Below are positions 28,087-49,817 of a stretch of 64,000 nucleotides of DNA, in pieces. Location: NCBI GenBank assembly GCA_022866045.1, contig JALHTW010000049.1, forward strand, positions 11,041 through 75,040, read 5' to 3'. This stretch comes from Candidatus Aminicenantes bacterium. GTDB taxonomy: Bacteria > Acidobacteriota > Aminicenantia > Aminicenantales > UBA4085. The position numbers and the translations under genes are program-made. Numbering within the stretch: the first letter of the stretch is position 1; each line of letters begins with the position of its first letter. The notes beneath the pieces are model-generated. The model did no database searches and was not told the DNA's origin. It saw only the letters and a list, made by a program, of their open reading frames with translations.

Positions 28087-30147
28087 ATGAACAAAAACAA
28101 GAGACACCGGCTTCTTCTCGGGTTCACGCTCCTCCTTTACGTCGGTGGTTTCACTCTTTTTTATTCCCGATATGTCCCGCTCCTAAAATCCTTTCAGATC
28201 GCTCTTGTCGTTCCTCTCCTCATCAATTTCATCCTGGCCTGCCTGAAAAAGGAATGGGGAATTCTCTTCTTTGTCGGGGCCTTCCCTTTGATCAATAATC
28301 TTCCCTATATGTTCGGCATCTTCGAGACTTCTCCCCATGCCCCGACGGCCCTCGTCCTGTTTTTGGCCTTCTTCCTGGGATACCTCATCAATCAGATGAT
28401 CCATCCGGCCGAAGCCGAAAGTCCCGGGAATCCTGATATCCTGAAACCCCTCCTCCTGTACTCGGGGGTCATCGCGGCTTCCGGGATCATCACGTTCATC
28501 AAGTATGCCAACTTCACGCCTCTCCTGTCGGACCGGATCTACGAACTCATCGTCAACACCAACATGGTCACGGCGGGCGGGGCCCTGATGAGCGTCGTCT
28601 TCAATTCGCTGAATTATCTGACCGGATTCCTTTTTTTCTTCATCCTGGCCAAATCATTGAAGACCAGAGAATTCCTGAACGCTGCCCTCGTTCTTCTTTC
28701 CCTATCGACTTTCATCGCCCTCGTCTTTTCCCTTGTTCAAAAATTTCTTTCCCTCTCCCTCGGGAATACGCCTCATTGGATTAATGCCCAACAAATCAAT
28801 GCTACGTTCAAGGACCCGAATTCGTTCGGGGTTTTTCTCTCCTCGTGTCTCCCCTTGTTTCTTGGCCTAGCCTTCTTCGGCTCCAAAGCGATGAGGTTGT
28901 TCTCCTCCGTCCTTATCGTTTTTTCCCTCTTCGTTTTTCCTTCGATCGGATCGCGAAGCGCCTTCCTCGGGCTTATCACGGCGTTCGGTCTTTTCTTTCT
29001 CTTGACCTTCCTCAAAGGAGGATTCGTCAGGAAAAAGGGCACTCATTTAGCCGTCATTCTGACGATCGCCCTTGTCGTCATCGTCGTGGCCGCCGTTTTA
29101 TTCAGGAACACCAAGCTGTATTCCCGACTCAGCTCAAACGTGAAAGACCTCAGGACAAATTTCTCCGTCAACCTCCTGTTCTCGGGGAAGCCGGGTTTCT
29201 GGTCCGTGGCGTCCCGCATGGCCGGAAGCTATCCCCTTACGGGAGTCGGCATCGGAGGTTTCATTGTCGAATTGCCGAACTATTACAAATTGAAGGGCCT
29301 CCCCCTGGATCAAACGGATGCCGCGGAAAACTATTTGTTTCAAGTTTGGTCTGAGCTGGGGTTGCTCGGTCTTCTCCTGGTTTTTTGGCTGTTCGTGACC
29401 ATCATCAAAGAGATGAGAAAAAGCTTTTCAAGAATTCCCCGCGGCGATAAGTCCATATTCCTACTCAACGGAGCCATCGCCGGCGTCGTTTCCTTTTTCG
29501 TCAATTTCCAATTCCATACCTACATCGGAAGCTATGAGGCAAAATATATGTTCTGGTTCCTTGTGGGGATCATCTTTGCTCTTGGCCGAATTTATCAGAA
29601 GCCTGAGGAGGAAGAAGAAAAGAATCTATTCAGCATAAAGTTCAAAATCGCCGGAGCGATTCTCATCCTGACTTTCGCTTCCGTCCATCTCTGGAACTCC
29701 GCTCATTCTCTCTCCCTCAAAACCAGCACGGCCCGATACGGCCTCCAGCAGGATTTCGGCGTGGACAAGCTGGAAAAAACGGATGACGGGCGGGAATTCC
29801 GCTGGACCCGAAGCTACGGCGGCCTGACCCTCAAGGTCGAAAAGCCGGTCATGGAGATTTCCCTCCTCGCCTCCCATCCGGATATCCGGAAAAATCCCGT
29901 CCGGGTGAAGATCTACATCGTCAAAGGTTTCTTTAAAGAGAAAAAGCTTTTAGCCGAGCTCACACTCAAGTATAGCATCTGGGAAAAGTACGAATTTTCC
30001 ATTCCGGAAGATTTAAATCAGACCGTGATCCTCCTCATCAAAGTGAGCCGGACGTGGAACCCCCTCAAGACATTCGGCACCCCGGACCCCAGGAATCTGG
30101 GGGTGGCCGTCGGTCCGATTCAGTTTAAAGATAAATCCGGCCCCTAA
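28087..30147 (+). CDS. large polytopic membrane protein, putative O-antigen ligase/polymerase-like (Wzy_C-like) with C-terminal periplasmic domain
   Basis: About 12 TM helices over ~500 aa, then a soluble ~170 aa tail. Last plus-strand gene of the glycan locus. Confidence 0.35.
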   Translation: MNKNKRHRLLLGFTLLLYVGGFTLFYSRYVPLLKSFQIALVVPLLINFILACLKKEWGILFFVGAFPLINNLPYMFGIFETSPHAPTALVLFLAFFLGYLINQMIHPAEAESPGNPDILKPLLLYSGVIAASGIITFIKYANFTPLLSDRIYELIVNTNMVTAGGALMSVVFNSLNYLTGFLFFFILAKSLKTREFLNAALVLLSLSTFIALVFSLVQKFLSLSLGNTPHWINAQQINATFKDPNSFGVFLSSCLPLFLGLAFFGSKAMRLFSSVLIVFSLFVFPSIGSRSAFLGLITAFGLFFLLTFLKGGFVRKKGTHLAVILTIALVVIVVAAVLFRNTKLYSRLSSNVKDLRTNFSVNLLFSGKPGFWSVASRMAGSYPLTGVGIGGFIVELPNYYKLKGLPLDQTDAAENYLFQVWSELGLLGLLLVFWLFVTIIKEMRKSFSRIPRGDKSIFLLNGAIAGVVSFFVNFQFHTYIGSYEAKYMFWFLVGIIFALGRIYQKPEEEEEKNLFSIKFKIAGAILILTFASVHLWNSAHSLSLKTSTARYGLQQDFGVDKLEKTDDGREFRWTRSYGGLTLKVEKPVMEISLLASHPDIRKNPVRVKIYIVKGFFKEKKLLAELTLKYSIWEKYEFSIPEDLNQTVILLIKVSRTWNPLKTFGTPDPRNLGVAVGPIQFKDKSGP

Positions 30148-30250
30148 ATTCTTCCCGCTTTTTGACGCCCTTCCCTGTTATTTCTCCCACTTTTAAGAAA
30201 AGAGAGGAGGCTTTTAGTCTCGAGAAATAATCCCATCCAAATACATTAGA

Positions 30251-30280
30251 ATGAGCGGCCTACGGGCCGCTCATTTTTTT
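30251..30280. terminator. bidirectional rho-independent terminator between convergent genes
   Basis: Perfect 10-bp stem atgagcggcc/ggccgctcat with a 4-nt loop, followed by TTTTTTT. Lies between the 3' ends of genes at 30147 (+) and 30319 (-). Confidence 0.75.
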
Positions 30281-30318
30281 ATGCCGGGCCTGTTCCAGGG
30301 CCGGGAGGCGTGTCTTTG

Positions 30319-31257
30319 TCACTGAATGTTCATCCTATTCCAGGCAACGGTTCGTCGAAGCCCTTCTTCGAACTCAACGGACGGTGTGTAGCCCAAGAAT
30401 TGTCCGGCCATGGACACATCGGCCAGGGAATGCTTGACGTCGCCGATCCGGGTTTGGGCATGTCGGGGAGTAAGGGCCGTTCCCAAGATCCGGTTCAACT
30501 TATCCACCAATTCTAAAAGGGAATATCTCGCTCCGCAGGCAATATTGAACACGCGACCTGGCGCATGAATGGCCTTGATCGCCAGCAGGTTTGCTTCAAC
30601 GACGTTCGCGACATAAGTAAAATCCCGGGATTGGCTTCCATCGCCGAAAATCGTCGGCCTTTCGTTCTTGAGCATGGATTTAATGAACAGCGGGATGACC
30701 GCGGCGTATTGCGAATCCGGATTCTGCCGGGGGCCGAAGATGTTAAAATATCGGAGGCATACGGTCTCCAGCCCGTAGACGCTGTGAAAGACCCGGCAGT
30801 AATACTCGCCTGCCAGCTTGGAAACGGCGTACGGCGAATATGGATTGGGAGGTATCGTCTCTATTTTCGGCAGCGTCGGCGTATCGCCGTAAACGGAGGA
30901 GGACGAGGCATAAACGACTCTCTTCACCGAAGCGTCCTTAGAGCACATCAGCAGGTTGAGCGTTCCGGCGACGTTGGTCTCGTTTGATGAGACCGGGTCT
31001 TTCACCGAACGTGAAACAGAGGCCAAGGCGCCAAGATGCAGAACATAATCCACACCGTCCACGGCCTTTCGGACCATCGCCGGGTCTCGAAGATCCCCTT
31101 CCTGTAATTCGATAACGTTCATGAACGGCGCCAGGTTTTCCCTGCGCCCCGTCGAAAAGTTGTCAAGCACCCTTACTCGTTCGCCTTGCTTCAGCAGCTC
31201 CTCAACGATATTCGATCCGATGAAACCGGCTCCGCCCGTGACCAGATACAAAGCCAT
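30319..31257 (-). CDS. UDP-GlcNAc/UDP-GlcNAcA 4-epimerase (WbpP/TviC-like extended SDR)
   Basis: MALYLVTGGAGFIGSNIVEELLKQGERVRVLDNFSTGRRENL closely follows the WbpP/TviC N-terminus. YAVSK catalytic motif. Confidence 0.75.
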   Translation of the reverse strand: MALYLVTGGAGFIGSNIVEELLKQGERVRVLDNFSTGRRENLAPFMNVIELQEGDLRDPAMVRKAVDGVDYVLHLGALASVSRSVKDPVSSNETNVAGTLNLLMCSKDASVKRVVYASSSSVYGDTPTLPKIETIPPNPYSPYAVSKLAGEYYCRVFHSVYGLETVCLRYFNIFGPRQNPDSQYAAVIPLFIKSMLKNERPTIFGDGSQSRDFTYVANVVEANLLAIKAIHAPGRVFNIACGARYSLLELVDKLNRILGTALTPRHAQTRIGDVKHSLADVSMAGQFLGYTPSVEFEEGLRRTVAWNRMNIQ

Positions 31258-31519
31258 TTCGTCCTCCTCTTCAAAAGCGATCCTTAAGGAATTGATAAGG
31301 AATTACTTTTCTGCTGCGCTGGCTGAATGAGCATTCATGCGCCAATTTTGCCTCATCCCATAGTCAGGGATGATAAATCGCAGCGTGATCGGATGTCAAG
31401 TTGAGTAAAACCCAATTTTTCGGTTGATAATTCAGAAACAATGCAATTAAATCGTCAAGCCTTCTTTAAGGACGCCAAAACCAACTTGACTTTTTATCTC
31501 TAATTTTCCTTGACACGAA

Positions 31520-31548
31520 ATGTAAAATCGGCTAAATTTGTTGCGTGT
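31520..31548 (+). promoter_or_regulatory. candidate sigma70-type promoter for the precursor-peptide operon
   Basis: TTGACA (31520-31525) - 17 nt - TAAATT (31543-31548) in the AT-rich divergent intergenic region. (TA)n tract at ~31597-31606. RBS AAAGGAGGT 7 nt before ATG 31644. Confidence 0.3.
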
Positions 31549-31643
31549 CACTTCTTGGAAAATGGGAGGTTGGAGTCGCCTTAGGATGGCTAAATAGATA
31601 TATATATAAGAGATAGCTACATTTAGAAAAAGGAGGTATCCAA

Positions 31644-31952
31644 ATGTCAAAGTACGAAGCGCCAATCCTTGTCCCCTTAGGGGAGATCGCCAAAGGGTCT
31701 GGAGTCTGTTCAGTTGGAACTGCAGTTGTCGGCGGCAACTGGGGCGGAATCGGTACCTGTACTGTGGGTGCTTGTTTTGATGCCCTCTTTCCTGGAATAA
31801 CTGATTGTACGGCGGGTCCTAATGCAACACAGGATTGCTCGGCGGGTCCTACAGCAAATCGGGATTGCACGGCCGGCACTTGCGCACTCAGGGATTGCAC
31901 GGGCGGTACTGCTGCAACAGATGTGACTTGCTCGGCAGGCGGGGCTGTATAG
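31644..31952 (+). CDS. Cys/Gly-rich repetitive RiPP-like precursor peptide (102 aa, 9 Cys)
   Basis: Strong SD sequence; first gene of an operon with PqqD-like and rSAM/SPASM genes. C-terminal half consists of D-C-(T/S)-A-G-x-x-A-x-x decapeptide repeats. Confidence 0.6.
   Translation: MSKYEAPILVPLGEIAKGSGVCSVGTAVVGGNWGGIGTCTVGACFDALFPGITDCTAGPNATQDCSAGPTANRDCTAGTCALRDCTGGTAATDVTCSAGGAV
31797..31946 (+). repeat. 30-nt in-frame tandem repeats (4 full + 1 partial) inside the precursor ORF
   Basis: gattgtacggcgggtcctaatgcaacacag / gattgctcggcgggtcctacagcaaatcgg / gattgcacggccggcacttgcgcactcagg / gattgcacgggcggtactgctgcaacagat / gtgacttgctcggcaggcggggctgta. Confidence 0.85.
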
Positions 31953-32186
31953 GTACTTTATTATAGCAGATTGCACTGCCGGCAGCGGCATGTAAGAGAC
32001 CGCATGACGGCCTACCTGGCTCTTTAATGCTATTTCGGCGAGAATGATTTTTCCAAGCCGAAAGCAGCGTTAGGCTTGAGAGCGATATTTTCTGGAACAA
32101 TCGCTCAAGACCGAGGGGACTCATCTTTTTGGCGGGATGTCAAGCGGCGTTGTTGCCACGAATGAAATAAATGGAGGAAATGATCC

Positions 32187-32474
32187 ATGAATCAAACGGA
32201 CAGACCGATTGCCAATCCCATCGTTGTGCTCCGGGAGGAATTCGATGACTGGGCCGTACTCTTCAATCCCGATACGGCCGAAGCCGTGGGAACCAATCCC
32301 GTCGGTGTAGCGGTATGGAAACGGATGGACGGCAAGAGGAGCATCGAGGATATAGCGGCGGAGATCAAAAACAGCTTTGAAGACGCTCCGGACGCCGCCT
32401 TCAAAGAGATCGCCGCCTTCGTTAACAGGCTTGCTGAAAACGGTTTTGTGGGGCTGGAACTGGAGAGCAAATAG
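32187..32474 (+). CDS. PqqD-family peptide chaperone (RiPP recognition element)
   Basis: 95 aa with W-x-x-(L/M)DG-x-R-(S/T)-x-x-(D/E)-I core (VWKRMDGKRSIEDIAAEI) and C-terminal FVNRLAENGFV. GGAGG RBS. Confidence 0.75.
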   Translation: MNQTDRPIANPIVVLREEFDDWAVLFNPDTAEAVGTNPVGVAVWKRMDGKRSIEDIAAEIKNSFEDAPDAAFKEIAAFVNRLAENGFVGLELESK

Positions 32475-32477
32475 CGG

Positions 32478-33608
32478 ATGCCCGAGGAACTCAAGGACAA
32501 GACAGAACCAACGGTGTCAAAGGTTATGCGTACCCCGCGCAGCCTGATCATTGAAATCACCTCCCGCTGCAATCTGCGCTGCCGCTACTGCTACTTCTTC
32601 AACAACCCGGCGATGGTTTACCGGGATCTGCCTGCCAACGAATGGCTCACCTTCTTCGACGAACTGGGGTCGCTCGGCGTGATGAAAGTCACCCTGGCAG
32701 GCGGAGAGCCGTTTATCCGGGAGGACCTGCCCGTACTCCTTGAGGGTATTGTCCGCAACCGGATGCGCTTCTCTTTCCTGTCCAATGGCGGGCTGATCAA
32801 CGATGAAATCGCCGCTTTCATGGCCGGCACAGGCCGCTGTGAGTATGTTCAGGTGTCGGTGGATGGTTCGTGCGCAGAGGTCCACGACTCCTGTCGCGGG
32901 CAAGGCTCTTTTGACGGTGCGATACGCGGCATTCGCACCCTGCAGCGCCATCGGATTAGGGTGGCAGTGCGGGTCACGATTCATCGGAACAACGTGCATG
33001 ATTTGGAGAACATCGCTCACTTTCTTCTGGATGAGCTGGGCCTGCCGGATTTCGGCACTAACTCTGCAGGATACATGGGCACGTGCTGCGGGAACGCGGA
33101 TGATGTGCTGCTGAACATAGAGGAACGGAAGGAGGCCATGGCGACCTTGCTGCGCCTCACGGCGAAATACGATGGACGCATCTCGTCAAACGCCGGCCCA
33201 TTGACGGATGGGCGCATGTGGCGCCGGATGGAGGAGGCACGGGCACAGGGCAAGCCGGCCTTTCACAACGGTGGCCGCCTCACCGCGTGCGGCTGTCCGA
33301 ACAACAAGATCTCCGTGCGCGCCGATGGCGCAATCGTTCCCTGCAATATGTTAGCCCATGTCGAATTAGGGCGCATCAACCATGATTCTCTGGCAGAAAT
33401 ATGGCAAAACAGCCCGGCTCTGAACCAACTCCGCAACCGACATTCGATCCCGTTGACCGGGTTTGAGTTCTGCGCCGGTTGTTCATACATCCCTTATTGC
33501 ACAGGCAACTGTCCGGGATTGGGCTACACGTTAACAGGTATGGTTGACCATCCCAGTCCGGATGCTTGTTTGCGCCGCTTTCTCGAGGAAGGTGGGGCCA
33601 TCGCATGA
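32478..33608 (+). CDS. radical SAM / SPASM-domain peptide-modifying enzyme
   Basis: CNLRCRYCYF (CxxxCxxC) near the N-terminus, GGEP motif, and a C-terminal Cys-rich SPASM region (CGCPNN...PCN...CAGCSYIPYCTGNCPG). Confidence 0.85.
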   Translation: MPEELKDKTEPTVSKVMRTPRSLIIEITSRCNLRCRYCYFFNNPAMVYRDLPANEWLTFFDELGSLGVMKVTLAGGEPFIREDLPVLLEGIVRNRMRFSFLSNGGLINDEIAAFMAGTGRCEYVQVSVDGSCAEVHDSCRGQGSFDGAIRGIRTLQRHRIRVAVRVTIHRNNVHDLENIAHFLLDELGLPDFGTNSAGYMGTCCGNADDVLLNIEERKEAMATLLRLTAKYDGRISSNAGPLTDGRMWRRMEEARAQGKPAFHNGGRLTACGCPNNKISVRADGAIVPCNMLAHVELGRINHDSLAEIWQNSPALNQLRNRHSIPLTGFEFCAGCSYIPYCTGNCPGLGYTLTGMVDHPSPDACLRRFLEEGGAIA

Positions 33609-34765
33609 GCATTTTGAGCGATATGAAACAGCGGAAGACGGGACAGGCTGGAATGCGGACGATCAACACTTTGTATTTCTACTTGACCGAAGGGTGTAAC
33701 CTCGCCTGCCGCCATTGTTGGATGGGTCCCCGGTTCGACGCCACAGGCAACCATTATCCCACCCTGCCGGTTGAGTTGTTCGAGACGGCCATCCGTGAAG
33801 CCAAGCCTCTGGGGCTGAGTGGTGTCAAACTTACCGGCGGCGAGCCGTTGTTGCATCCCCACTTCACTCGTTTGCTGGAGATTGTCCGGCGTGAAGAGTT
33901 GAAGCTGACGATCGAGACCAACGGCCTGCTGTGCACGCCGGAGATCGCCGCTGAGATCGCCAAATCTCCCAACCGATTCGTATCCGTAAGTATCGACGGA
34001 ACTGATGCAGCGACCCACGAATGGGTGCGCGGTGTACCGGGAGCCTTTGAAGCGGCCCGCCAGGCGGTGCGCAGCCTTGTGGCCGCCGGCACCAGGCCGC
34101 AGATCATTTTCACGGTGATGCGCAGCAATGCCGGCCAGGTGGACGCCATGGTCCGAATGGCCGAAGAACAGGGTGCGGCCTCACTCAAGTTCAACGTGGT
34201 GCAGCCCACGGCACGAGGCGAGAAGTTGCATGAAAACCAGGAGACCCTGAACATCGGCGACCTCATCGAGTTGGGGCGGCACGTGGAACAGGAACTGGCG
34301 CCTAAGACCAAGTTGAAGATCTTCTTTCATTACCCACACGCTTTTAGAGCCCTCCATCGCATCGCCAGCGGGGATGGGTGCAGCGCCTGCGGGATCTTCG
34401 GCATCCTGGGCGTCATCGCCAGCGGACACTATGCCCTGTGCGGGATCGGCGAGCAGGTGCCGGATCTGATCTTTGGCGCGGTAGGGAAAGCCAGGCTGGA
34501 AGAGGTATGGCGAGAAAACGCCATCTTGAAGGCTCTCCGGGAGGGACTGCCCGAGCGACTGGAAGGGGTCTGCGGTCGGTGCCTGATGAAAGGGCGCTGC
34601 CTGGGCGCGTGCATTGCCCAGAACTACTACAGCAAGGGCAGCCTGTGGGCGCCATACTGGTTCTGTGAACAGGCGGAAGAAGCGGGTCTCTTTCCAACGT
34701 CACGTCTGGGAACAAGACCTACACAGTCTCCACTTATCACTATCGGCAATGCCGCTTCAGAATAG
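33605..34765 (+). CDS. radical SAM / SPASM-domain peptide-modifying enzyme (second copy)
   Basis: CNLACRHCWM, GGEPLLHP, and SPASM cysteines (CSACGIF...CG...CGRCLMKGRCLGACIA). ATGA overlap with the upstream rSAM. Confidence 0.85.
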   Translation: MSILSDMKQRKTGQAGMRTINTLYFYLTEGCNLACRHCWMGPRFDATGNHYPTLPVELFETAIREAKPLGLSGVKLTGGEPLLHPHFTRLLEIVRREELKLTIETNGLLCTPEIAAEIAKSPNRFVSVSIDGTDAATHEWVRGVPGAFEAARQAVRSLVAAGTRPQIIFTVMRSNAGQVDAMVRMAEEQGAASLKFNVVQPTARGEKLHENQETLNIGDLIELGRHVEQELAPKTKLKIFFHYPHAFRALHRIASGDGCSACGIFGILGVIASGHYALCGIGEQVPDLIFGAVGKARLEEVWRENAILKALREGLPERLEGVCGRCLMKGRCLGACIAQNYYSKGSLWAPYWFCEQAEEAGLFPTSRLGTRPTQSPLITIGNAASE

Positions 34766-36311
34766 TAACGGGAATGTCCCGGGGGCCATGTTCTTCGCTG
34801 CTTATGTCGGCCCGAGCATGAATCCGACTCTGCGCGAGCCGGAGATCATGGAGATCCTGCCTTATGACAAGAGGCCCTTGCGCGTTGGCGATGTGGCCTT
34901 TTTTCTGCCACCGGAGGCTGATCAGCCGGTCGTACACCGCATTATACGTGTGACCCCCGCAGGTATATCCACACTCGGTGACAACAACACCCAAGAGGAT
35001 ACTCTTCTCTTGCAGCCAAAGAGCATTAAAGGCCGGGTGGTGGCCGCCTGGCGTGGTCAAAAGCGGCGGAAGATCGCGGGCGGGTACCAGGGCCGGTTGA
35101 TAGGCCGCTGGCTTCATTGGCGACGCGTCCTTGACCGTGGCGTGTCTCCTCTGCTGCACCCCCTTTATCAAGCCCTATCTCACTGGGGATTGATCGCCTG
35201 GGTGTTGCCTGCTCCATTCCGGCCGCGAGTCGTCGTTTTCCAGGCCCAAGGTCGGGATCAGTTTCAGCTTCTGCTGGGACAGCGTATCATTGGGCGATAT
35301 GATGACCACAGGCATCAATGGCAGATCCAACGACCCTTTCACTTGTTTGTGGATGGAAGGGCGCTTCCAAGTAAACAGGATAGGGACCGAGTGAACCGGA
35401 AAGTTTTGACTGAACGGCGACGAACCATGAACCATCTACTGACGCAGGGAGTGCGGCATGACCTCGTCCTGGCTGATGGGAGTCATTGGGAAATTGCCGC
35501 CGAGGACAAGGAGGCCGCATCCATCGTTTCACAACTGGGATGCGCGATGCAGTTGCGCATGACACCAGGCGCAATCGAACCTTCTCATCACGGCAATCTG
35601 TGCCGACTGCTCGTCCAGGTTGACGCACAGACGTCCGTGGCGGATTGCTATGTCCCGTTGGCATCAGAAAATGACGGCGTCGTGGTCTGCATTCTAAGTC
35701 CATGCGATCACTGGGGCGGCCCGTTCGTCAATCTTATGAGATTATCGCTCGTCTTTGCTCGCGAAGCGCAGGCCCATGGAGGAGTCCTCATACACGGTGC
35801 GCTCTCTGAACGGGACGGCAGCGGTGTGATCCTGGCTGCGCCGGGCGGGGCGGGAAAGACCACGGCCAGCAATCGGCTTCCGGCCCCGTGGCGCTCGCTG
35901 TGCGACGATACCACGCTGGTGGTGCGGGACCCGCAAGGCAACTACTGGGCGCACCCCTGGCCCACCTGGAGCCGTTTCCTGGACGGGGGACCGGGCGGTA
36001 CGTGGGACGTGCAGAGCGCTGTGCCTCTCAAGGGCATCTTCTTCCTGGCCCAGGCGGTTGAAGATCGGGTGGAACGGGTAGGCCCCGGGCATGCGGTCAG
36101 CCTGCTCGGGGAGTGCGTAGGACAGGCCTCAATGTTCATGCCACTGGGCCTATTAAAAGAAGAACTCCGCGCCCTGCATCTGGAACGGTTCAATAACCTT
36201 TGCGCCTTGGCCCGGGTCGTACCCGCACACTTGCTTTACATCAGCCTGACCGGTACCTTCTGGCAAGAGATCGAGCAGGCGCTTGAGGGAGGACATTGTG
36301 AAGACACGTGA
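34749..36311 (+). CDS. fusion protein: N-terminal S26/S24-type (signal-peptidase-I-like) peptidase domain + C-terminal HprK-related P-loop kinase-like domain
   Basis: N-terminus VGPSMNPTLREPEIMEILPY...VGDVAFF...VVHRIIRV (SPase I box B GxSMxPTL). C-terminus GGVLIHGALSERDGSGVILAAPGGAGKTTASNRL resembles the HprK C-domain Walker A. Start at ATG 34749 is inferred. Confidence 0.55.
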   Translation: MPLQNSNGNVPGAMFFAAYVGPSMNPTLREPEIMEILPYDKRPLRVGDVAFFLPPEADQPVVHRIIRVTPAGISTLGDNNTQEDTLLLQPKSIKGRVVAAWRGQKRRKIAGGYQGRLIGRWLHWRRVLDRGVSPLLHPLYQALSHWGLIAWVLPAPFRPRVVVFQAQGRDQFQLLLGQRIIGRYDDHRHQWQIQRPFHLFVDGRALPSKQDRDRVNRKVLTERRRTMNHLLTQGVRHDLVLADGSHWEIAAEDKEAASIVSQLGCAMQLRMTPGAIEPSHHGNLCRLLVQVDAQTSVADCYVPLASENDGVVVCILSPCDHWGGPFVNLMRLSLVFAREAQAHGGVLIHGALSERDGSGVILAAPGGAGKTTASNRLPAPWRSLCDDTTLVVRDPQGNYWAHPWPTWSRFLDGGPGGTWDVQSAVPLKGIFFLAQAVEDRVERVGPGHAVSLLGECVGQASMFMPLGLLKEELRALHLERFNNLCALARVVPAHLLYISLTGTFWQEIEQALEGGHCEDT

Positions 36312-36393
36312 GACACGATCAGCAAGAATGAATCAGAATCAAAGCAGCAGAGCGCTGGATGATTACATTTAATTATGCAAGAGCAGGTTAATT

Positions 36394-38214
36394 ATGCAAG
36401 AGCAGGCTGAATCGATAAAACTGAAAATACAACGCGCCCTACAGCTTGGTCGCGCCGTGCGTTTTGTCTGGCAGAGCGCGAAAAGCTGGACAATAGCGAA
36501 CGGGGCTCTCATTGTGGTCCAAGGAATATTGCCGTTACTCCCGCTGTATCTCATGAAGCTCATGGTGGACGCCGTGACCGCGGGGCTGGCGGCTCCTGAC
36601 AAAGGGGCCGCTCTTAGACACGTGCTGTTGCTTGTTGGCTTTATGGGGGCAGCAACCCTGTTTGCCTTCTTGATCCGCCTGATAGCGGGACTGGTTAGCG
36701 AATGGCAGGGTTACATTGTCACGGATCACATGAACGACGTCCTCCTTGCCAAGTCCATTGAGGTAGATCTGGAGTATTACGAGAGTGCGCGATACTACGA
36801 CACCCTTCATCGCGCCCAACGCGAAGCCCCTTATCGCCCTATGAATATCGTTAATGGTTTGGCCCAGATTGGTCAGAACGGAATCTCGCTGCTGGCAATA
36901 GCAGGACTGCTCGTGTCATTTCATTGGCTCATCGCGGCAATCCTATTCACTGCCGTTATTTCCGGGACCGCAGTGCGATTAAGATATACCCGCAAGATGT
37001 ATCGCTGGCAACGTGAGCAGACATCCACGGAACGGCAAGCCGGCTACCTCAATTGGATTCTCACCGACAGCAGCCACGCCAAGGAAATCCGCCTGTTTGA
37101 CCTTGGACCTCTGTTCATGCGCCGGTTTCGCGATATCCGCCGGAAACTCCGCAAGGGAAGGCTGGCCATCACGCGCAGGCGTTATATCGCTGATTTTGCG
37201 GCTCAGACCTTTGCCACCGCGGCCATCTACGGTTCGTATGCTTATGTTGCTTCTCAGGCGGTGTGGGGGAAGATCACGTATGGTGATCTGGTGATGTATT
37301 ATCAGGCATTTCAGCGCGTCCAGGGATTTCTTCAGGGGATATTGGGCAGTCTGGCAGGACTGTATGCAGACAACCTGTTCCTTTCAAATCTCTACGAGTT
37401 TCTTGATCTGAAACGTACAGTCATCGAACCGGCTCATGCCAGCCCTGTGCCTCAGCCGATGCAACGCGGCATCGTGCTGGACCATGTGAGTTTTCAGTAT
37501 CCCACAGGCACCAGAAAGGTTTTTGAGGATATTTCCCTCACCATCCGGCCGGGAGAAGTGGTGGCTTTGGTGGGTGAGAATGGCTCGGGTAAGACGACTT
37601 TGATCAAGTTGTTGTGTCGATTGTACGATCCGACAGGTGGGACCATTACCATCGACGGGGTAGATCTGCGCCAGTTTGAAACAAAAGCGTTAAGACACGA
37701 AATCGCTATCATTTTTCAGGACTATGCCCACTACCATCTGACGGCCCGAGAGAACATCTGGTTTGGGAATACCGCCCTTCCGCCCGACCATGAACGTGTC
37801 ATCGCCGCTGCGCGCCGCTCGGGGGCTGACGACGTCATCAGCGCGTTGCCTCATGGCTATGATACGATTCTGGGAAAGTGGTTCGAGGACGGGGAGGAAC
37901 TAAGCATTGGCGAGTGGCAGAAAGTGGCCCTGGCCCGCGCCTTCATGCGCGATGCACAGATCATCGTCCTTGACGAACCGACAAGCTCTATGGACGCCAA
38001 GGCGGAATATGAGGTCTTCAAGAGTTTTCGCCAACTGGTGTCCGGTCGAACAGCCATCCTGATCAGTCATCGCTTTTCCACCGTCCGGATGGCCGACCGC
38101 ATTTATGTGCTGAAGCATGGAAGCATCATCGAAGGTGGCACCCACGAAGAGCTCCTTCGCGTGGGAGGAACCTATGCCCGGTTGTTCGAAATGCAAGCCC
38201 AGCATTACCGGTGA
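36394..38214 (+). CDS. ABC exporter, fused permease + ATPase (type I exporter, no peptidase domain)
   Basis: Six N-terminal TM helices. Walker A GENGSGKTTL, signature LSIGEWQKVALARA, Walker B IIVLDEPTSSMD. Confidence 0.9.
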   Translation: MQEQAESIKLKIQRALQLGRAVRFVWQSAKSWTIANGALIVVQGILPLLPLYLMKLMVDAVTAGLAAPDKGAALRHVLLLVGFMGAATLFAFLIRLIAGLVSEWQGYIVTDHMNDVLLAKSIEVDLEYYESARYYDTLHRAQREAPYRPMNIVNGLAQIGQNGISLLAIAGLLVSFHWLIAAILFTAVISGTAVRLRYTRKMYRWQREQTSTERQAGYLNWILTDSSHAKEIRLFDLGPLFMRRFRDIRRKLRKGRLAITRRRYIADFAAQTFATAAIYGSYAYVASQAVWGKITYGDLVMYYQAFQRVQGFLQGILGSLAGLYADNLFLSNLYEFLDLKRTVIEPAHASPVPQPMQRGIVLDHVSFQYPTGTRKVFEDISLTIRPGEVVALVGENGSGKTTLIKLLCRLYDPTGGTITIDGVDLRQFETKALRHEIAIIFQDYAHYHLTARENIWFGNTALPPDHERVIAAARRSGADDVISALPHGYDTILGKWFEDGEELSIGEWQKVALARAFMRDAQIIVLDEPTSSMDAKAEYEVFKSFRQLVSGRTAILISHRFSTVRMADRIYVLKHGSIIEGGTHEELLRVGGTYARLFEMQAQHYR

Positions 38215-38245
38215 AGGCTTGATGATCTCGGAGGCGTAAAAAAGT

Positions 38246-39526
38246 ATGCCAGATTTTTTTAAGGAACGCAGCGTGACCATGGATAAGCGGTATACCGGAG
38301 ACGGCAAAAATACTTTGAAGCGCATTCTTGACTTATCGTGGCGAATTTCTGTCTATGCGCCTCCAATGAAGCCATTTATCCGCTTCTCGAAGCACGCAGA
38401 TACACTATACAAGGGAAAAACAAACAGCTACAAACATTTCTTCTGGGATTTCGACGACGCTTTGCAGAGGGTTCTTTTAGGCATGGCCCGTACCATAGCA
38501 ACACCCTCGGAGATTGCTGAAGCGTGCATCGAACGATGGAAAATTAACCTTGAGAAGTTCTACCAAAGAAGGAAGAGACAATTGGAAGAGTTGCGAAAAA
38601 ATGGCGAGGTTCCCCAATTTCGATACACGCCGCGCAACGAGTTTATCTTCTCACGGGTTGAGCCTGGCAGCCGCTTGCTTTATGTAGGATGTGGCACTGG
38701 AACAGAATGCCTCGGCTTGGCGCAGAGAGGCTATGAGGTTATCGGAATTGATACGGACGAACAACTGATTGAGATTGCAAATGAGTGGGCGGAATATCTT
38801 AAGCTTCCTTTTCAGGCAGTTTGCATGGATGCTGACAACATCGGTTTTTCGCCAGGATCTTTTGATGGCTTTTTATTGGAATTTTATGGATTTCAGTCTT
38901 CCCTGGTTCAGGCGTTGGCTCTTCAAAGAGGCCTCGCAAGTGTACTGAATGACAATGGAAAAGGGTTTATCTCAGCACCCCGCAAAAAATATGCCTCTCT
39001 CTGGTACAGGATGCCGAATCTTGGGTATCCAGAATCCATGTTTCATTGGCTGACAAGCCAATGCCGATTGGACCACTACTTTTCACAGATGGATGCGTGT
39101 GAAGAGAAGCTCGCTTTTGGACTGTATATCCGGAGCCATACTGTAGACTCTCTGTCTCGCGAATTGGGTGGCGTTTTCGATGTGCAAGAATGTATGTATG
39201 AAAAATATGATCCGCGCTATCTGATAAGTGTGGTCAAAAGAAAGGGCCGTTTTTCGGATTCATCCCCGACCTCAGAGAATGACGATACCGAGGATTGGAC
39301 AAAGCAGGAATATCTGCAAAGGGAGGGGGTGTCCATTGAAGATGTCTTGTACGAGATTCACGCTATTTGCGATCTACTTGAATTACAGAAGGAGAGAGTC
39401 GAGCGGTTTTTCCTCAATGGTGATGTTTCTGGGGGAAAAAGCCCTCTATCCATGGTGGATACGGATCTTCCAAGGTTTATCGAGCTTCTCGAGCATACCT
39501 ACGGAATGCGGCCCTTCCGCTCTTAG
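38246..39526 (+). CDS. class I SAM-dependent methyltransferase with N-terminal accessory domain
   Basis: LLYVGCGTGTECLGLAQRGYEVIGIDTDEQLIEIA (motif I plus acidic loop). Lower GC than the rSAM genes. Confidence 0.65.
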   Translation: MPDFFKERSVTMDKRYTGDGKNTLKRILDLSWRISVYAPPMKPFIRFSKHADTLYKGKTNSYKHFFWDFDDALQRVLLGMARTIATPSEIAEACIERWKINLEKFYQRRKRQLEELRKNGEVPQFRYTPRNEFIFSRVEPGSRLLYVGCGTGTECLGLAQRGYEVIGIDTDEQLIEIANEWAEYLKLPFQAVCMDADNIGFSPGSFDGFLLEFYGFQSSLVQALALQRGLASVLNDNGKGFISAPRKKYASLWYRMPNLGYPESMFHWLTSQCRLDHYFSQMDACEEKLAFGLYIRSHTVDSLSRELGGVFDVQECMYEKYDPRYLISVVKRKGRFSDSSPTSENDDTEDWTKQEYLQREGVSIEDVLYEIHAICDLLELQKERVERFFLNGDVSGGKSPLSMVDTDLPRFIELLEHTYGMRPFRS

Positions 39527-39540
39527 GGGGGAATATAGAA

Positions 39541-39692
39541 AAAGAGTGTCACGCTTGTCGTTAGCAGCCAAACGTCGCCAAATAGGTGTCAACCTGTTTT
39601 CCGCTGTATCTCGTGAAGTTCATGGTGGACGCCGTGACCGCCAGGGTGTTTACGCTGACCTCTTTGAGAAGCAAGCCCGGTCCTATCGTTAG
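39541..39692 (+). pseudogene. collapsed remnant of a second ABC exporter paralog (5' fragment joined out of frame to last 16 codons)
   Basis: 39601-39643 is ~95% identical to 36541-36582 of the ABC gene. 39644-39692 encodes GVYADLFEKQARSYR*, versus GGTYARLFEMQAQHYR* at the ABC C-terminus. Confidence 0.6.
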
Positions 39693-39715
39693 CCGCAAGA
39701 ACTGGAGGACTTATC

Positions 39716-40963
39716 ATGGAACAAAGAGAAGCGGGCAGACTTTTATGCGATTTTCTTTCAGGTAGAAAAATACCAGAAGCCAGGCTCGAAAAATTATCGC
39801 CGGCTGATGGGGAGAGTCTGGCAGACTTGGCGCTGCGTTTTAAAGTGGGGGGGTTGTTCTATCGGGAAATAAAGTCCCGTAACATTCCGACTGAGCTTAT
39901 CCCGGTTGATGTCAGAAACAGACTCAGGGACGCCTACCGCAACCTGGCCACTGTGAACACGAGTCTTTTTCTTGATGCCTCAAAAGTTCTTAAGTCTCTG
40001 GCCGACAATCAACTGCCGGTCATTGCGCTCAAAGGTCTTTCGCTGGCAAAAAATATCTATGGTGATATCGCTTTAAGACCAATGTCCGATATGGATCTTT
40101 TAGTGAAAGAAGAAGATCTGGTCAGGGCCGGCCGGATACTGCTGGCTCTTGGCTATAAGCCGCATTTTTCTGCTTGGGAGAGCATGTTGAAGACTCGCCG
40201 TCATTTGCCGCCTTTTACGAATAAAAGCGGGGCGATGATAGAACTTCACTGGAATATTGTGACTCCGGATAGCCCCATTGAAGTAGATCTTGACGGGTTG
40301 TGGGAGAGAGCGTGTCTTATCAAAGTGGATAATGTCGAGGTCCGGGCTTTTTCTCCGGAGGATTTATTTTTACATTTGTGTATCCATGCTGGTCATCATC
40401 TGCAGACCGGAATAGACTTGATTCCTTTCTGTGATATGGCCGGATTGATAAAAACATCCGGAGATAAAATCGACTGGCAAATAGTCATTGAGAGGGCCAC
40501 CCGGTGGGGCGGCCAAAAGTGTGTTTACCTGATGTTGCTTCTGGTCCGGGAATTGCTGGGAGCGGCGCCGCCGGATAAAATTATGTCAGAAATAAAACCC
40601 GATGATTACCGGTCTGTTTTTTTTGATGAAGCCCTGGAACAGATTTTTGATGTAAGCCCGGCAGGTCAGCTGTTTAGAATAAGAATCGGCAAACTTTCAA
40701 AAATAAAAAAAGTTAAAGGGATTAGAGGTAAAGTTTTGGCTCTTTTAAAAGGAGTTTTTCCGTCAAGGGAGAATCTGGCCCGCATCTATCCGGTGTCGGT
40801 TTCTTCCCCGAAGATATATCTGTGTTATTTATTTCGCCTGGGCCGCATGATTGTCTACTATACGATTGTGCTTCTTCGGTTATTCCGCCGTGATCAATCG
40901 GTTATAAAAGCGGTCCATCAGGAGCATCGGGTGAGCGCGGTTTCCGACTGGATGTTTTCATAA
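39716..40963 (+). CDS. nucleotidyltransferase-family protein (PF14907-like, HPr-rel-A-system-type NTase)
   Basis: Pol-beta-like motif GDIALRPMSDMDLLVKEED (hG..x9-13 DxD). About 415 aa. Sits in a neighbourhood with PqqD-like and HprK-like genes. Confidence 0.5.
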   Translation: MEQREAGRLLCDFLSGRKIPEARLEKLSPADGESLADLALRFKVGGLFYREIKSRNIPTELIPVDVRNRLRDAYRNLATVNTSLFLDASKVLKSLADNQLPVIALKGLSLAKNIYGDIALRPMSDMDLLVKEEDLVRAGRILLALGYKPHFSAWESMLKTRRHLPPFTNKSGAMIELHWNIVTPDSPIEVDLDGLWERACLIKVDNVEVRAFSPEDLFLHLCIHAGHHLQTGIDLIPFCDMAGLIKTSGDKIDWQIVIERATRWGGQKCVYLMLLLVRELLGAAPPDKIMSEIKPDDYRSVFFDEALEQIFDVSPAGQLFRIRIGKLSKIKKVKGIRGKVLALLKGVFPSRENLARIYPVSVSSPKIYLCYLFRLGRMIVYYTIVLLRLFRRDQSVIKAVHQEHRVSAVSDWMFS

Positions 40964-41147
40964 TGATCTGTGCCCAGAAATAAAATCTTAAAAATGGGGA
41001 CAGCTGTACGAGCTCACTCATTCGGTAACTTTTCGTGGTTTATCAAAAGGTGTTTCATAGTTCAGGTCTCCATGTTTCCTCAGGTGGTTATATTCCAAAC
41101 ATGGAATATTTTTCCGAGGTTCTTTTGTTCAGACGATTACTAAAGTA

Positions 41148-42287
41148 TTAAGCTGCGATTTTCTTTTTATTTTTTTTGAGATATTCCAAGAAAAACGTGA
41201 GGAACCCAAAGATGGTCAAACCAATCAGGCCGGCGATTAACACATTCATTTTTTTCTTTGGCGCTACTGGACCTGGAGATGGCGTTGGTTCTTTTATGAG
41301 CTGGGCATAGTCGATTCTCGTTTTTCGTTCGATCAGGAGCTCGATCTGTTTTTTGAAGTTTTCCGTAGAGTTGCTGATCTTAGCGGCAGCATTTTTGTAC
41401 TTTTCAATCTGGGCGTCGATTTCCTTAAGATTTTCAGTTTTTATTTTAATCTCTAACTTCAGGGACTCTTGAAGGTTTTTTTCCACGCTCAAATTTCCGT
41501 CGAGTGTACCGTAATACTGGAGGTTGCTCTGGACATAGCTCATATATAAAAGCAGGCCGATGGATTCTCCCGTTTCGCGTTGTTCCGCCAAGGTTTTTTT
41601 TAGCTGTTCCTCTAAGGCTTCCATTCTTTTTTTGACGGATCCCATTTCTTCAGAAATGTTTTTGGCACGCTCTTCGGAAATATTTATTCTATTTTCATCC
41701 GTCGATATTTCCTGCCTGGTTTTCGTCTTTTGAATGTCCAAGAGCTTGATTTCATTGTAGTTATCTTTGATTATCAACTCATTTTGTTTGATGGCATTTT
41801 CGTTTGAGGCGATCTGCGTATCGAGACCCTTGATTTGCACGTCGAGTTTTCTGTCCAGCTCATTTTTGAGATGTCGGAAAAGAGAATTTAATATCTTAAT
41901 TCCTCGGTCGATATTGGAGTCCCTTATCCAAAACCTCACAAGCTTTGTGTCCTTGAGGTTCTCCGCTTTAATGGCGGATAATGTTCTGGGGTCGAGATTT
42001 AATTCCGCGGCGATAAGGTCACTGTAGGCATGCTGATTGATTTGGCCGGCGATCTGTCTTGGGTCAACGACGAGGACCTCTAAAAATTGGACATTCTCAG
42101 CCTGAACGTAAAATTTACTGGGCTGGATGATGGCGTCGACTTCCCAGACAGGAGTTATAAAAAAGCTGACGATCCCCGCTGTAACCGCAATAATAAGCGT
42201 TGGGACGATGATCATCCATTTTCTTCTCCAAAGGACTTCCAAATATTCCATGAGATTGATTTCTTCATTATGCTCGGTCTCGTTCAT
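41148..42287 (-). CDS. wzz: Wzz / polysaccharide co-polymerase chain-length determinant
   Basis: N-terminal EINLMEYLEVLWRRKWMIIVPTLIIAVTAGIVSFF TM helix, long coiled-coil periplasmic region, C-terminal TM helix. AT-rich. Confidence 0.7.
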   Translation of the reverse strand: MNETEHNEEINLMEYLEVLWRRKWMIIVPTLIIAVTAGIVSFFITPVWEVDAIIQPSKFYVQAENVQFLEVLVVDPRQIAGQINQHAYSDLIAAELNLDPRTLSAIKAENLKDTKLVRFWIRDSNIDRGIKILNSLFRHLKNELDRKLDVQIKGLDTQIASNENAIKQNELIIKDNYNEIKLLDIQKTKTRQEISTDENRINISEERAKNISEEMGSVKKRMEALEEQLKKTLAEQRETGESIGLLLYMSYVQSNLQYYGTLDGNLSVEKNLQESLKLEIKIKTENLKEIDAQIEKYKNAAAKISNSTENFKKQIELLIERKTRIDYAQLIKEPTPSPGPVAPKKKMNVLIAGLIGLTIFGFLTFFLEYLKKNKKKIAA

Positions 42288-42358
42288 GGGGTCCTCGCCA
42301 TATTAAAAATAAGAAGTTATGATACGTGATTTGGAATAAAATTCAAGAGAAAATATTC

Positions 42359-42901
42359 TCACTTCTCTTTTACCATAAATTCTAGGGCGAATTGATAATT
42401 ATTATAATCATCGATGGGGACTCGACCCGCTTTAGACCAATCTCCCTTTGGGAGAAACGTGGCTTTTGCAAAGGGCCTGCAATCTTCGGGCTTCCCGGTT
42501 AATTCGTTTTCATAAAAAAGGTGGGCGGTAAAACTATGGTAGGTATTCGGATATTTCTCTATGGTGGCCTTGATAATTTCCCGGACCAGCTCTTCGACTT
42601 TTTTTTGAGGTGTTTGATCGGGAACGCAGACCCAGAGGAATTTGTGAATAGGCGCGGAACCTAGGGCTTGGGTCTTGATGATCCTGCAGCGGATGCCTGT
42701 CCGAGCCGTGATGTCCTGCGTGTTGATTTCGGAAGCTGTCACGTGGGCTTGAGTGTCTGCCGGTTTGGGCGGAGCCGCTCTTTTACAGCCGGTAAGAACG
42801 CAAAGAGAAAGAAATCCTATGGCCAGTCCGATTCTCAGGGAAAGAGAAACCCCCGATTTTTTCATTTCCGCCTCCACATAACGAGGTTCCCCAAAACTCA
42901 A
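42359..42901 (-). CDS. hypothetical lipoprotein
   Basis: Signal peptide with lipobox LTGC (…CVLTGCKRA). 180 aa. Confidence 0.45.
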   Translation of the reverse strand: MSFGEPRYVEAEMKKSGVSLSLRIGLAIGFLSLCVLTGCKRAAPPKPADTQAHVTASEINTQDITARTGIRCRIIKTQALGSAPIHKFLWVCVPDQTPQKKVEELVREIIKATIEKYPNTYHSFTAHLFYENELTGKPEDCRPFAKATFLPKGDWSKAGRVPIDDYNNYQFALEFMVKEK

Positions 42902-43245
42902 AATTGTGACTTATTCTTTATCACAATCGGCCTACGCCTGTCAATTTATTGAAGTTGTCCACTTTTAAAACACAGAGGGAATACGCCTATCGAATTCCCA
43001 TGTTTTCATGATCATCGAAAGAGCAGATGTCAACGGAATTCAGTTTTTGCACCTAAAGAAGGGAGCTACTCAACGGGCCGGCTAATCTGTCGCTTAAAAG
43101 AACGAATAGCTGATTGAAACAAAATCGATCGCGTTCCAATTAATTTGATGCTCCAACAAGGTCCCCAATAAAGATTGGGCCGAACGGGAGATTAAACCAA
43201 GAAGTGAAAAACAACGTCCTTTCGATCCTCTTCGGTTATTCGTTC

Positions 43246-43392
43246 AATTGAGGACGAGGGGGACACGATCCCAAATTCCGTAGAATTTGGGTCATGTCCC
43301 CGAATTCGGCGCCCGGCTGAAAATTCAGGATCTGGAGATACAACGTAATTCATGAATAATTCAGGTTAGTGATTGAATGGGATTCTTCGCTG
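43246..43392. repeat. REP-like palindrome-rich intergenic repeat, copy A
   Basis: Near-identical to 56792-56937. Contains the hairpin ggggacacgatcccaaattc-cgt-agaatttgggtcatgtcccc and the palindrome aattcatgaataattca. Confidence 0.7.
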
Positions 43393-43419
43393 CGCTCAGA
43401 ATGACAGGGGGAGGTGATT

Positions 43420-45518: not shown

Positions 45519-45537
45519 TTATTGTCCCTGAAGGATT

Positions 45538-46746: not shown

Positions 46747-46867
46747 AACCCGCCTATTATATCATTTTATGTATTCGCGAATAAAAGGAGCTTTTCATTT
46801 TAATTCCGGAAAAAGAGACGCTTCCTTTTCATCTTATTCTCCCCCTTTTTAAAGAGAAGAGGAGGGA

Positions 46868-48717: not shown

Positions 48718-48724
48718 TTTTTAA

Positions 48725-49807: not shown

Positions 49808-49817
49808 GATAGTCGTC

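Follow-up and report, generated by a model that had tools for sequence, protein, structure and literature searches.

A probable long-repeat ScmA-like precursor peptide gene beside a SynChlorMet cassette in a Candidatus Aminicenantes bacterium

In a 64,000-nucleotide (nt) stretch of contig JALHTW010000049.1 from a Candidatus Aminicenantes bacterium (hereafter the window), a small open reading frame (ORF) built from tandem repeats stands upstream of the genes of the SynChlorMet (SCM) cassette. We have little doubt that this ORF (31644-31952, forward strand) is the ribosomal precursor of the cassette and, judging by its sequence, the encoded peptide appears to be a long-repeat relative of the ScmA precursor that falls outside the curated ScmA model. 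The best full explanation we can offer, to which we assign a probability of roughly 0.55, is that of an ScmA-type precursor that would receive a thioether in each of its units, lose its leader, and be tailored and exported. The cassette and a narrow precursor model were already known; what appears to be new is the long-repeat form of the precursor, its motif, its leader register and a pair of Cys residues. An original prediction, made by a model from the letters of the window, had read the ORF as coding for the precursor of a ribosomally synthesised and post-translationally modified peptide (RiPP) with a modular Cys core. This reading is borne out by a Shine-Dalgarno sequence, by adjoining genes for a PqqD-type RiPP recognition element (RRE) and two radical S-adenosylmethionine (rSAM)/SPASM enzymes, and by homologues that co-occur with the cassette.

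The precursor gene and its repeated core

The features of the precursor gene are as follows (aa, amino acids).

31630..31636, + strand: Shine-Dalgarno sequence AAGGAGG, strong, 7 nt before the ATG, as read from the sequence
31644..31952, + strand: precursor peptide gene, ScmA-like long-repeat variant (102 aa plus stop), conserved beside the SCM cassette
31644..31703, + strand: predicted leader, residues 1-20 (MSKYEAPILVPLGEIAKGSG), with Y4, P7, L9, G13 and S19 in a lasso-type RRE-binding register
31704..31949, + strand: predicted core, residues 21-102, seven C-x-x-G units
31707, 31758, 31806, 31836, 31866, 31896 and 31929, + strand: codons of the core Cys residues C22, C39, C55, C65, C75, C85 and C96
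31773..31775, + strand: C44, extra Cys outside C-x-x-G (in C-T-V-G-A-C), partner in a co-varying pair
31881..31883, + strand: C80, extra Cys outside C-x-x-G (in C-T-A-G-T-C-A), other partner in the pair
31803..31922, + strand: four in-frame 30-nt tandem units (DCTAGPNATQ, DCSAGPTANR, DCTAGTCALR, DCTGGTAATD)
31923..31949, + strand: fifth, C-terminal unit VTCSAGGAV, shifted by one codon, with 33-nt spacing from unit 4

The ORF translates to a 102-aa peptide (MSKYEAPILVPLGEIAKGSGVCSVGTAVVGGNWGGIGTCTVGACFDALFPGITDCTAGPNATQDCSAGPTANRDCTAGTCALRDCTGGTAATDVTCSAGGAV), and the peptide and repeat units quoted in the original prediction match this translation exactly. A repeat search placed the 30-nt copies at 31803, 31833, 31863 and 31893 (100, 77, 60 and 73% identity to the first, respectively), and the Cys of the fifth unit sits 11 residues, not 10, after that of the preceding unit. 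The block had been predicted at 31797-31946, within 6 nt of its true position (31803-31949). Tandem Repeats Finder, which had been suggested as a check, did detect the repeat but scored just 31803-31873 (2.4 copies, 80% match, at the lowest score threshold), and on account of this under-detection we used instead the repeat search and a shuffle test of identity at a lag of 30 nt. Over the four units this identity amounts to 0.68, compared with 0.285 +/- 0.048 in codon shuffles of the ORF (0 of 20,000 reach 0.68), and the block gives the top lag-30 signal of the whole window, the runner-up being at 0.50. The 30-nt periodicity is far above chance, and the in-frame tandem units are real, as four copies and an offset fifth. 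As C-x-x-G also occurs upstream of the block, at C22 and C39, the peptide contains seven units in total.

A search of 5.8 billion proteins returned 42 homologues of the peptide, none of which has a functional name ("hypothetical protein" at most) or a Pfam domain. In addition, a profile search of 1.84 billion representatives gave 448 matches at E <= 1e-3, most of them 50-150 aa long and aligned from the leader onward. Five proteins (P0048, P0049, P0050, P0068 and P0170) were considered as evidence for a structural module and rejected, being large, low-complexity and unrelated, with a Cys that recurs periodically.

The unit conserved in 86 unique homologues is C-[T/S]-A-G-x-x-A. The profile of their 472 units reads, in full, Ala at -4, two variable residues, Asp (37%), Ala (24%), Thr (15%) or Tyr (5%) at -1, the Cys, Thr (60%) or Ser (23%), Ala (67%), Gly, two variable residues and Ala (58%). 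Each peptide holds 3-11 C-x-x-G units (mode 7), spaced by 10 residues in 255 cases and by 11 in 90, within a core rich in Ala, Gly, Thr, Cys and Ser. The close homologues keep C, G(+3) and A(+6) without exception from one unit to the next; the invariant positions of their alignment (A1) are C22, G25, C55, G58, A61, C65, G68, A71, C75, G78, C85 and G88, and the invariance of Gly(+3) there is independent of the regular expression used for the 86-peptide profile.

Cys residues outside C-x-x-G follow a pattern of their own, with none in 42 of the 86 peptides and two in 38. The late extra Cys (C-x-x-G-x-C-A, the C80 type) is found in 36 peptides, each of which has another extra Cys as well, in the setting C-x-x-G-x-C (C44 here) or C-x-C-G. 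The joint counts (36 with both, 0 with the late one only, 8 with the other only and 42 with neither) suggest from the sequences that the two extra Cys, C44 and C80 in the window peptide, form a coupled pair. Because the partner occurs in two different placements, the pairing appears to be maintained.

The original prediction also regarded the repeats as a hotspot of repeat-number variation. Unit number does vary across the family, as described above, but the hotspot part finds no support: the four units share 60-77% pairwise nt identity, and P0002 (85% identical, 8 units), the closest relative with a differing unit count, is distinguished by a 13-nt indel and substitutions near the 3' end, with no clean 30-nt slip. 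This difference is no evidence for an active slippage hotspot. Elsewhere in the family, the precursors of loci L012, L027 and L052 carry (GT)n or poly-Gly linkers of 15-70 residues between the first post-leader C-x-x-G and the repeat block, and the distance from the leader-proximal unit to the repeats is therefore unconstrained.

AlphaFold2 (AF2) models the precursor as disordered, with no fold and a mean confidence (pLDDT) of 41, and the peptide has no signal peptide. Synonymous and nonsynonymous counts against close relatives gave no overall purifying signal (16 nonsynonymous versus 10 synonymous codon differences relative to L061), and we regard the ORF as coding because its frame and motif are deeply conserved, not because of these counts.

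The SynChlorMet cassette and the predicted leader

Downstream of the precursor gene lie the genes of the cassette (ABC, ATP-binding cassette).

32187..32474, + strand: scmD, discrete PqqD-family RRE (TIGR04248, 108.5 bits, cutoff 100; PF05402)
32478..33608, + strand: scmE, rSAM/SPASM enzyme (TIGR04250, 559.7 bits, cutoff 400), with CNLRCRYC and eight C-terminal Cys
33605..34765, + strand: scmF, second rSAM/SPASM enzyme (TIGR04251, 531.4 bits, cutoff 400)
34749..36311, + strand: fusion of an S26B (SipW/Sec11-type) peptidase with ScmC (TIGR04249, 187.4 bits, cutoff 125, also Pfam PF27840; TIGR02228, E 5e-9)
36394..38214, + strand: ABC exporter with permease and ATPase in one protein; synteny holds in 37 fetched loci
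38246..39526, + strand: SAM-dependent methyltransferase, an optional member, after the ABC gene in 6 fetched loci only
39716..40963, + strand: PF14907 nucleotidyltransferase (NTP_transf_5, E 1.8e-59), which recurs in the cassette

ScmD, ScmE, ScmF and ScmC all score above their NCBIfam cutoffs and their genes are contiguous on one strand (32187-36311), with a 3-nt gap between scmD and scmE. The mechanical ORF of scmF runs from 33566, but its likely ATG (33605) overlaps the stop codon of scmE (ATGA). ScmE and ScmF each carry CX3CX2C and eight C-terminal Cys, i.e. the full SPASM set, although the Pfam SPASM model gives ScmF no score. The fusion protein comprises an N-terminal S26B peptidase, which resembles archaeal and endoplasmic reticulum-type signal peptidase I (PDB match SEC11), an uncharacterised middle region and a C-terminal ScmC domain (HprK/PEPCK-like P-loop), for a total of 520-565 aa. 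Its motifs are GPSMNPTL, VVHRII and GDNN in the peptidase and GGAGKT (Walker A) in ScmC, and the peptidase Ser, His and Asp as well as the Walker A Lys are invariant in 32 fusion homologues. As AF2 gave no confident model of the peptidase domain, its assignment rests on these sequence motifs. The mechanical ORF of the fusion begins at a TTG at 34614, 150 nt inside scmF; homologues of 499-545 aa suggest a start at the ATG at 34749, overlapping the end of scmF by about 17 nt.

On every long contig examined (L001-L007 and L061), the small ORF accompanies genes for PqqD, rSAM/SPASM, rSAM, ScmC, ABC and NTP_transf_5 proteins. A genome scan with ScmE identified 53 loci (52-89% identity) in species-level genomes, nearly all of them metagenome-assembled, from Thermodesulfobacteriota, Acidobacteriota, Lentisphaerota, Kiritimatiellia, Verrucomicrobiota and Chloroflexota, as well as from Clostridia, Gammaproteobacteria, Aminicenantes, Brocadiaceae, Riflebacteria and others. 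Homologous loci lacking the small ORF had been named as grounds for refuting the precursor; a small precursor-like ORF is found at 46 of the 53 loci, 40 under a strict criterion (leader motif and at least three C-x-x-G) and 6 under a relaxed one (L031, L048, L049, L053, L054 and L057). At four of the other seven, ScmE is cut off by or lies at a contig edge. More than 700 ScmC-fusion clusters exist at 90% identity, and the SynChlorMet cassette is abundant in anaerobic environmental bacteria.

Several loci depart from the arrangement seen in the window. In the more divergent cassettes (L005, L049, L053 and L054) the precursor gene follows both rSAM genes instead of preceding scmD, and the leaders are more divergent too (e.g. 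RYQPPQVIRFRDLARGYG). Loci L035, L041 and L047 have two or three precursor copies, in tandem or dispersed, with short cores of 3-5 units, and in L035 ScmE is apparently followed directly by ScmC, without ScmF between them. Finally, L048 carries, at about position 4999, a cassette 89-93% identical to that of the window, in which the precursor leader is intact and the core frameshifted (...GACTMGSSVIPVPLCLPVPDAPD), reflecting either a pseudogene or a long-read assembly indel.

In general form the leader reads Y-x-x-P-x-[L/V/I]-x-x-L-G-x-x-A-K-G-S-G, and the consensus of the 86 unique peptides is Y-E-S-P-[I/V]-L-V-P-L-G-E-M-A-K-G-S-G-[V/A]-C, with Y, P, L12 and G13 invariant. Leaders of lasso peptides follow a rule of Tyr-17, Pro-14, Leu-12 and Thr-2 (PMC10368454). 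Setting Y4 of the window peptide at -17 puts P7 at -14, L9 at -12, S19 at -2 and G20 at -1, so that the peptide appears by sequence to keep the lasso register (Tyr-17/Pro-14/Leu-12, Ser/Thr-2); position -2 is Ser or Thr in 72 of the 86 peptides. The NCBIfam model lasso_leader_L3 (NF033521) is the second most frequent match of the family, hitting 15 of 142 representatives, all below threshold.

The original prediction assigned some 50 residues to the leader. Because C22 and G25 are invariant and the register is of the lasso type, we instead infer, by analogy, a leader of about 20 aa cleaved at G20|V21, so that the core would start with V21-C22, just before the first invariant C-x-x-G. Enzymes of the signal-peptidase type prefer small residues at -3 and -1, a rule that the G-S-G at the end of the leader fits. 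The N-terminus itself varies: in the closest relatives, L061 and L062, the precursor begins 8 codons further upstream (MSDQNVKGK-SKYE...), while in the window a 24-nt deletion puts the Shine-Dalgarno sequence beside the downstream ATG and the peptide starts with MSKYE. Both forms are present across the family.

The relation to ScmA can be stated from several sides. A permissive NCBIfam scan includes a curated precursor model, TIGR04252 ("SynChlorMet cassette protein ScmA"), of 49 positions and with a cutoff of 35 bits, to which the window peptide, with its 102 aa and seven units, gives no match even at E <= 10. Close homologues and short variants scanned individually reach 7.7-20.6 bits, and 41 of 142 family representatives match at E <= 1 (best E 6e-8). 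The model shares the Y-x-x-P start of the leader, its alignment to the L042 peptide beginning at the Tyr, and its core follows the same C-x-x-G logic. By context, the ORF has what is expected of ScmA, being a small ORF in or beside scmDEFC with a Y-x-x-P leader and a Cys/Gly-rich core. None of the annotations that we reached contains the long-repeat form, the motif shared across the family, the lasso-type register or the co-varying pair of Cys, and the precursors are unnamed; our literature search found no experimental or descriptive paper on the SynChlorMet cassette.

Proposed chemistry and its alternatives

We propose that ScmD binds the lasso-like leader through Tyr-17 along with Pro-14 and Leu-12 and presents the core to ScmE and ScmF, which would act on the seven periodic Cys. 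The product would carry one small in-line (unnested) thioether ring per unit, linking the Cys sulfur to a carbon of a nearby residue of the same unit. By analogy with known systems, we give thioethers about an even chance of being the modification. The leading acceptor candidate would be the invariant Gly at +3, forming a four-residue sactionine ring as in streptosactin, followed by Ala at +6, but a bond from Cys to Gly(+3) specifically is doubtful. C44 and C80 would probably pair with each other. The S26-type domain of the ScmC fusion may then remove the leader after ...K-G-S-G, with its small residues at -3/-1, the peptide may be tailored by the kinase-like domain of ScmC together with the PF14907 nucleotidyltransferase and the methyltransferase, by analogy with phospho-glycosylated lasso peptides, and the ABC transporter would export the product.

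Two kinds of known systems provide these analogies. Streptosactin contains two unnested 4-residue sactionine rings (PMC9389541). Type 2 sactipeptides such as the streptosactin/GggB and QmpB products resemble the proposed SCM product in their rSAM/SPASM enzymes, small in-line unnested rings and core rich in small residues, and the Cys(i)-(i+3) ring spacing of streptosactin equals the C-x-x-G spacing here, as an analogy only. They differ in having two rings in a ~14-mer and a single rSAM enzyme, whereas SCM has seven units, two rSAM enzymes, a discrete RRE and extra tailoring genes. The equipment expected of sactipeptides in general is present, i.e. the rSAM CX3CX2C, the SPASM auxiliary-cluster Cys and an RRE (the discrete ScmD). 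The type 1 topology, a nested hairpin with N-terminal Cys donors and C-terminal acceptors, is absent, as Cys are periodic through the whole core.

The second analogy concerns lasso peptides, in which an HPr-kinase homologue and a nucleotidyltransferase phosphorylate and glycosylate the peptide and the RRE stimulates the kinase (PMC8498205, PMC10368454, PMC7533575). Phospho/glyco lasso clusters (paeninodin, pseudomycoidin, bsf) have in common with SCM the leader register, a discrete PqqD-type RRE, an HPr-kinase-like protein, an "uncharacterised nucleotidyltransferase" and an ABC exporter. Neither the lasso cyclase (Asn-synthetase homologue) nor the B2 Cys protease occurs in 31644-40963 or in the syntenic loci; in place of cyclase and B2, SCM has two rSAM/SPASM enzymes and an S26 Ser peptidase, and its core is far longer and Cys-rich.

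Several points weigh against the proposed mechanism. No feature of the sequences tells thioether formation apart from the other reactions that rSAM enzymes direct at Cys, and Gly at +3 could be invariant for reasons of conformation instead of serving as acceptor. All characterised thioether synthases are distant from ScmE and ScmF, and ScmE stays far below the family cutoffs (StsB 112, PapB 91 and AlbA 78 bits). Among the best 25 NCBIfam matches examined for each enzyme (of 77 families in all for ScmE and 82 for ScmF), the best non-Scm ones are WgkB, NirJ and AhbD for ScmE and AhbD, NirJ2 and MftC for ScmF. The predicted cleavage site is drawn from the lasso analogy, yet the lasso protease is of a different type, and Ser, the residue that lasso kinases phosphorylate, is not conserved at the C-terminus in the family. 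AF2 models the fusion poorly (pLDDT 52), and the fold match to PEPCK/HPr kinase is weak (template-modelling score 0.2-0.3). Finally, the co-variation count of the extra Cys ignores kinship, as it is not phylogeny-corrected. The nearest solved relatives of ScmE and ScmF are SkfB, PqqE, CteB and SuiB, all peptide maturases, and BlsE; assigning the chemistry from PDB and NCBIfam comparisons was tried and rejected, as no solved relative is close enough and the comparisons did not discriminate.

On a more tentative reading, SCM might be a RiPP class of its own, in which recombination has brought a lasso-type toolkit (leader, RRE, kinase, nucleotidyltransferase and exporter) together with a pair of rSAM/SPASM enzymes and a leader protease of the signal-peptidase type to place one modification per C-x-x-G, with a bond or topology unlike that of the named classes. 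An example would be a ladder of Cys-Gly(+3) alpha-thioether rings with a C44-C80 clasp and phospho-glycosylation or methylation; alternatively, ScmE and ScmF might carry out two different Cys chemistries.

Cys modification without any cross-link is unlikely but has some evidence in its favour. Each Cys would become a thiooxazole (SbtM-like, -4 H) or a formylglycine (by an anSME acting on C-x-[A/P]-x-R), giving a linear poly-heterocycle or poly-aldehyde, perhaps a metal binder. The Cys and its immediate neighbours (C-[T/S]-A-G) are conserved and no distant acceptor is, which is the pattern expected for a local modification. C-T-A-G, moreover, is what we take to be a loose likeness of the anSME target C-x-A-x-R, but the Arg required after the motif at sulfatase-type formylglycine sites is missing. 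Formation of thio(seleno)oxazoles from Cys is a known rSAM/SPASM reaction, SbtM converting Cys to thiooxazole (PMC11002830), but membership of SbtM in any family near ScmE and ScmF could not be shown, and thioethers are by far the commonest Cys-directed rSAM/SPASM chemistry in RiPPs (PMC11002830, PMC9389541). The GeoRSP rSAM and PqqD models also match ScmE (114 bits), ScmF (107 bits; rSAM cutoff 400) and ScmD over their full length, below threshold. ScmE further resembles rSAM_ACGX (94 bits, cutoff 400). Both the GeoRSP and ACGX systems, which were defined by the same curators, are uncharacterised too and their precursor motifs differ. The ACGX system also has a short periodic Cys-Gly motif.

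The original prediction suggested, from strict Asp-Cys pairing, thioethers from Cys to the beta-carbon of Asp like those of ranthipeptides such as freyrasin. Spelled out, with Asp as acceptor and a chemistry of the freyrasin/PapB or QhpD kind, this would make the product a multi-ring ranthipeptide. We consider this improbable. The window peptide does have four D-C units, D54 is nearly invariant in the 42 closest homologues (D64 and D74 being common), and an RRE and rSAM/SPASM maturases are present. As in freyrasin, repeated Cys modules would each carry one ring installed by an RRE-dependent rSAM/SPASM enzyme, and PapB links adjacent Cys and Asp (n = 0), though less efficiently (PMC9413430). 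The pairing, however, is lineage-specific: beyond the 37% of units with Asp at -1, Asp-Cys is missing altogether from 20 of the 86 peptides with the same cassette (those of L009 and L017, for instance), whole subfamilies carry Tyr-Cys, Ala-Cys or Thr-Cys, Gly is also seen at -1, and even in close homologues D54 alone is nearly invariant, the fourth unit having the consensus R-A-C-T-A-G with Ala at -1. Asp before Cys is thus a trait of the window's subfamily and not a family-defining acceptor. The order is also reversed, as freyrasin has six C-X3-D motifs with Cys N-terminal to Asp (PMC9413430), while here it is D-C and the next Asp lies at C-X8-D; the window peptide has no Cys-X3-Asp/Glu motif of the freyrasin kind, and the family has no conserved acidic acceptor. 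The maturases point the same way: ScmE reaches 91.2 bits against the PapB family (NF047865), whose cutoff is 340 bits, and PapB is not among the best 25 matches of ScmF. As for SCIFF peptides, no SCIFF precursor matches at E <= 10 and no SCIFF maturase is among the best 25 matches of ScmE or ScmF.

That the ORF is no modified-peptide precursor at all, but an ORF that arose by chance in a spacer, or else a small, secreted repeat protein rich in Cys and unconnected with the enzymes encoded beside it, is scarcely credible: long ORFs do occur on the antisense strand too, nonsynonymous differences do exceed synonymous ones among close relatives and the family profile does collect unrelated large periodic-Cys proteins, but the frame, leader and Cys/Gly pattern are kept from Thermodesulfobacteriota to Chloroflexota, Verrucomicrobiota and Clostridia, always in the cassette even where the position within it differs, the Shine-Dalgarno sequence is strong, neither a signal peptide nor a fold is predicted, the curated ScmA model overlaps the family, and RiPP cores normally show an excess of nonsynonymous change outside their motifs.

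Surrounding DNA and significance

Three non-coding elements accompany the precursor gene.

31510..31538, + strand: promoter-like site TTGACA-17-TAAATT, ~105 nt upstream of the ATG, 10/12 matches
31969..31984, + strand: non-coding duplicate of the head of a repeat unit (GATTGCACTGCCGGCA), not in frame, with 94% identity to unit 3
32019..32083, + strand: conserved stem-loop in the precursor-scmD spacer (free energy -26.7 kcal/mol, z -3.3; no equally good fold in 200 shuffles)

The promoter-like site is weak evidence, as sites of this kind are no more numerous in the region than expected from shuffles. The copy of the repeat head is a sixth one, 17 nt past the stop codon, and is kept as non-coding DNA in L061, L062 and seven other loci of different lineages; it may be a relic unit that is now part of an RNA or regulatory element. 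The spacer between the precursor gene and scmD (31953-32186) measures 234 nt and is 100-420 nt long in 22 of 23 loci, in contrast to the genes further downstream, which adjoin or overlap each other. The sequence of its stem-loop is conserved in 10 loci, across phyla, with a covariation term of about 0; the hairpin has no U-tract, and no Rfam match was found in 30000-42000. It may act in processing, stability or attenuation and so set the ratio of precursor to enzymes.

Between the methyltransferase and nucleotidyltransferase genes, 39598-39689 holds the scar of a second ABC-exporter gene, in which residues 49-63 (FPLYLVKFMVDAVTA) run straight into the C-terminal residues 592-606 (GVYADLFEKQARSYR, followed by a stop), and a 41-nt stretch is 95% identical to 36541-36581. 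The scar suggests that the methyltransferase gene arrived through recombination between two cassettes. Around the cassette, 1-31257 and 41148-52066 form a large cell-surface polysaccharide/lipopolysaccharide region with two Wzy_C, a Wzz, a Bac_transf initiating transferase, a DegT, several epimerases and glycosyltransferases, a heptosyltransferase and a Kdo-kinase-like protein. The surroundings of L061 and L005 are similar, but in a tblastn survey of 62 fetched loci only a few others are, and the polysaccharide genes were rejected as part of the system. They may stand here by chance, or the peptide and envelope glycans may be connected in a lineage-specific way.

Curators have catalogued the cassette for years, while the precursor gene adjoining it is in no case named and is often left uncalled. 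As the long-repeat forms escape the curated ScmA model, mining pipelines that rely on it will under-report these clusters. The family-wide precursor definition, the predicted cleavage site and the co-varying Cys pair provide starting points, and the natural DC-free variants exclude Asp as a required acceptor. If the chemistry is new, the modular design, with one ring per ten residues, would be attractive for engineering multi-cyclic peptides.

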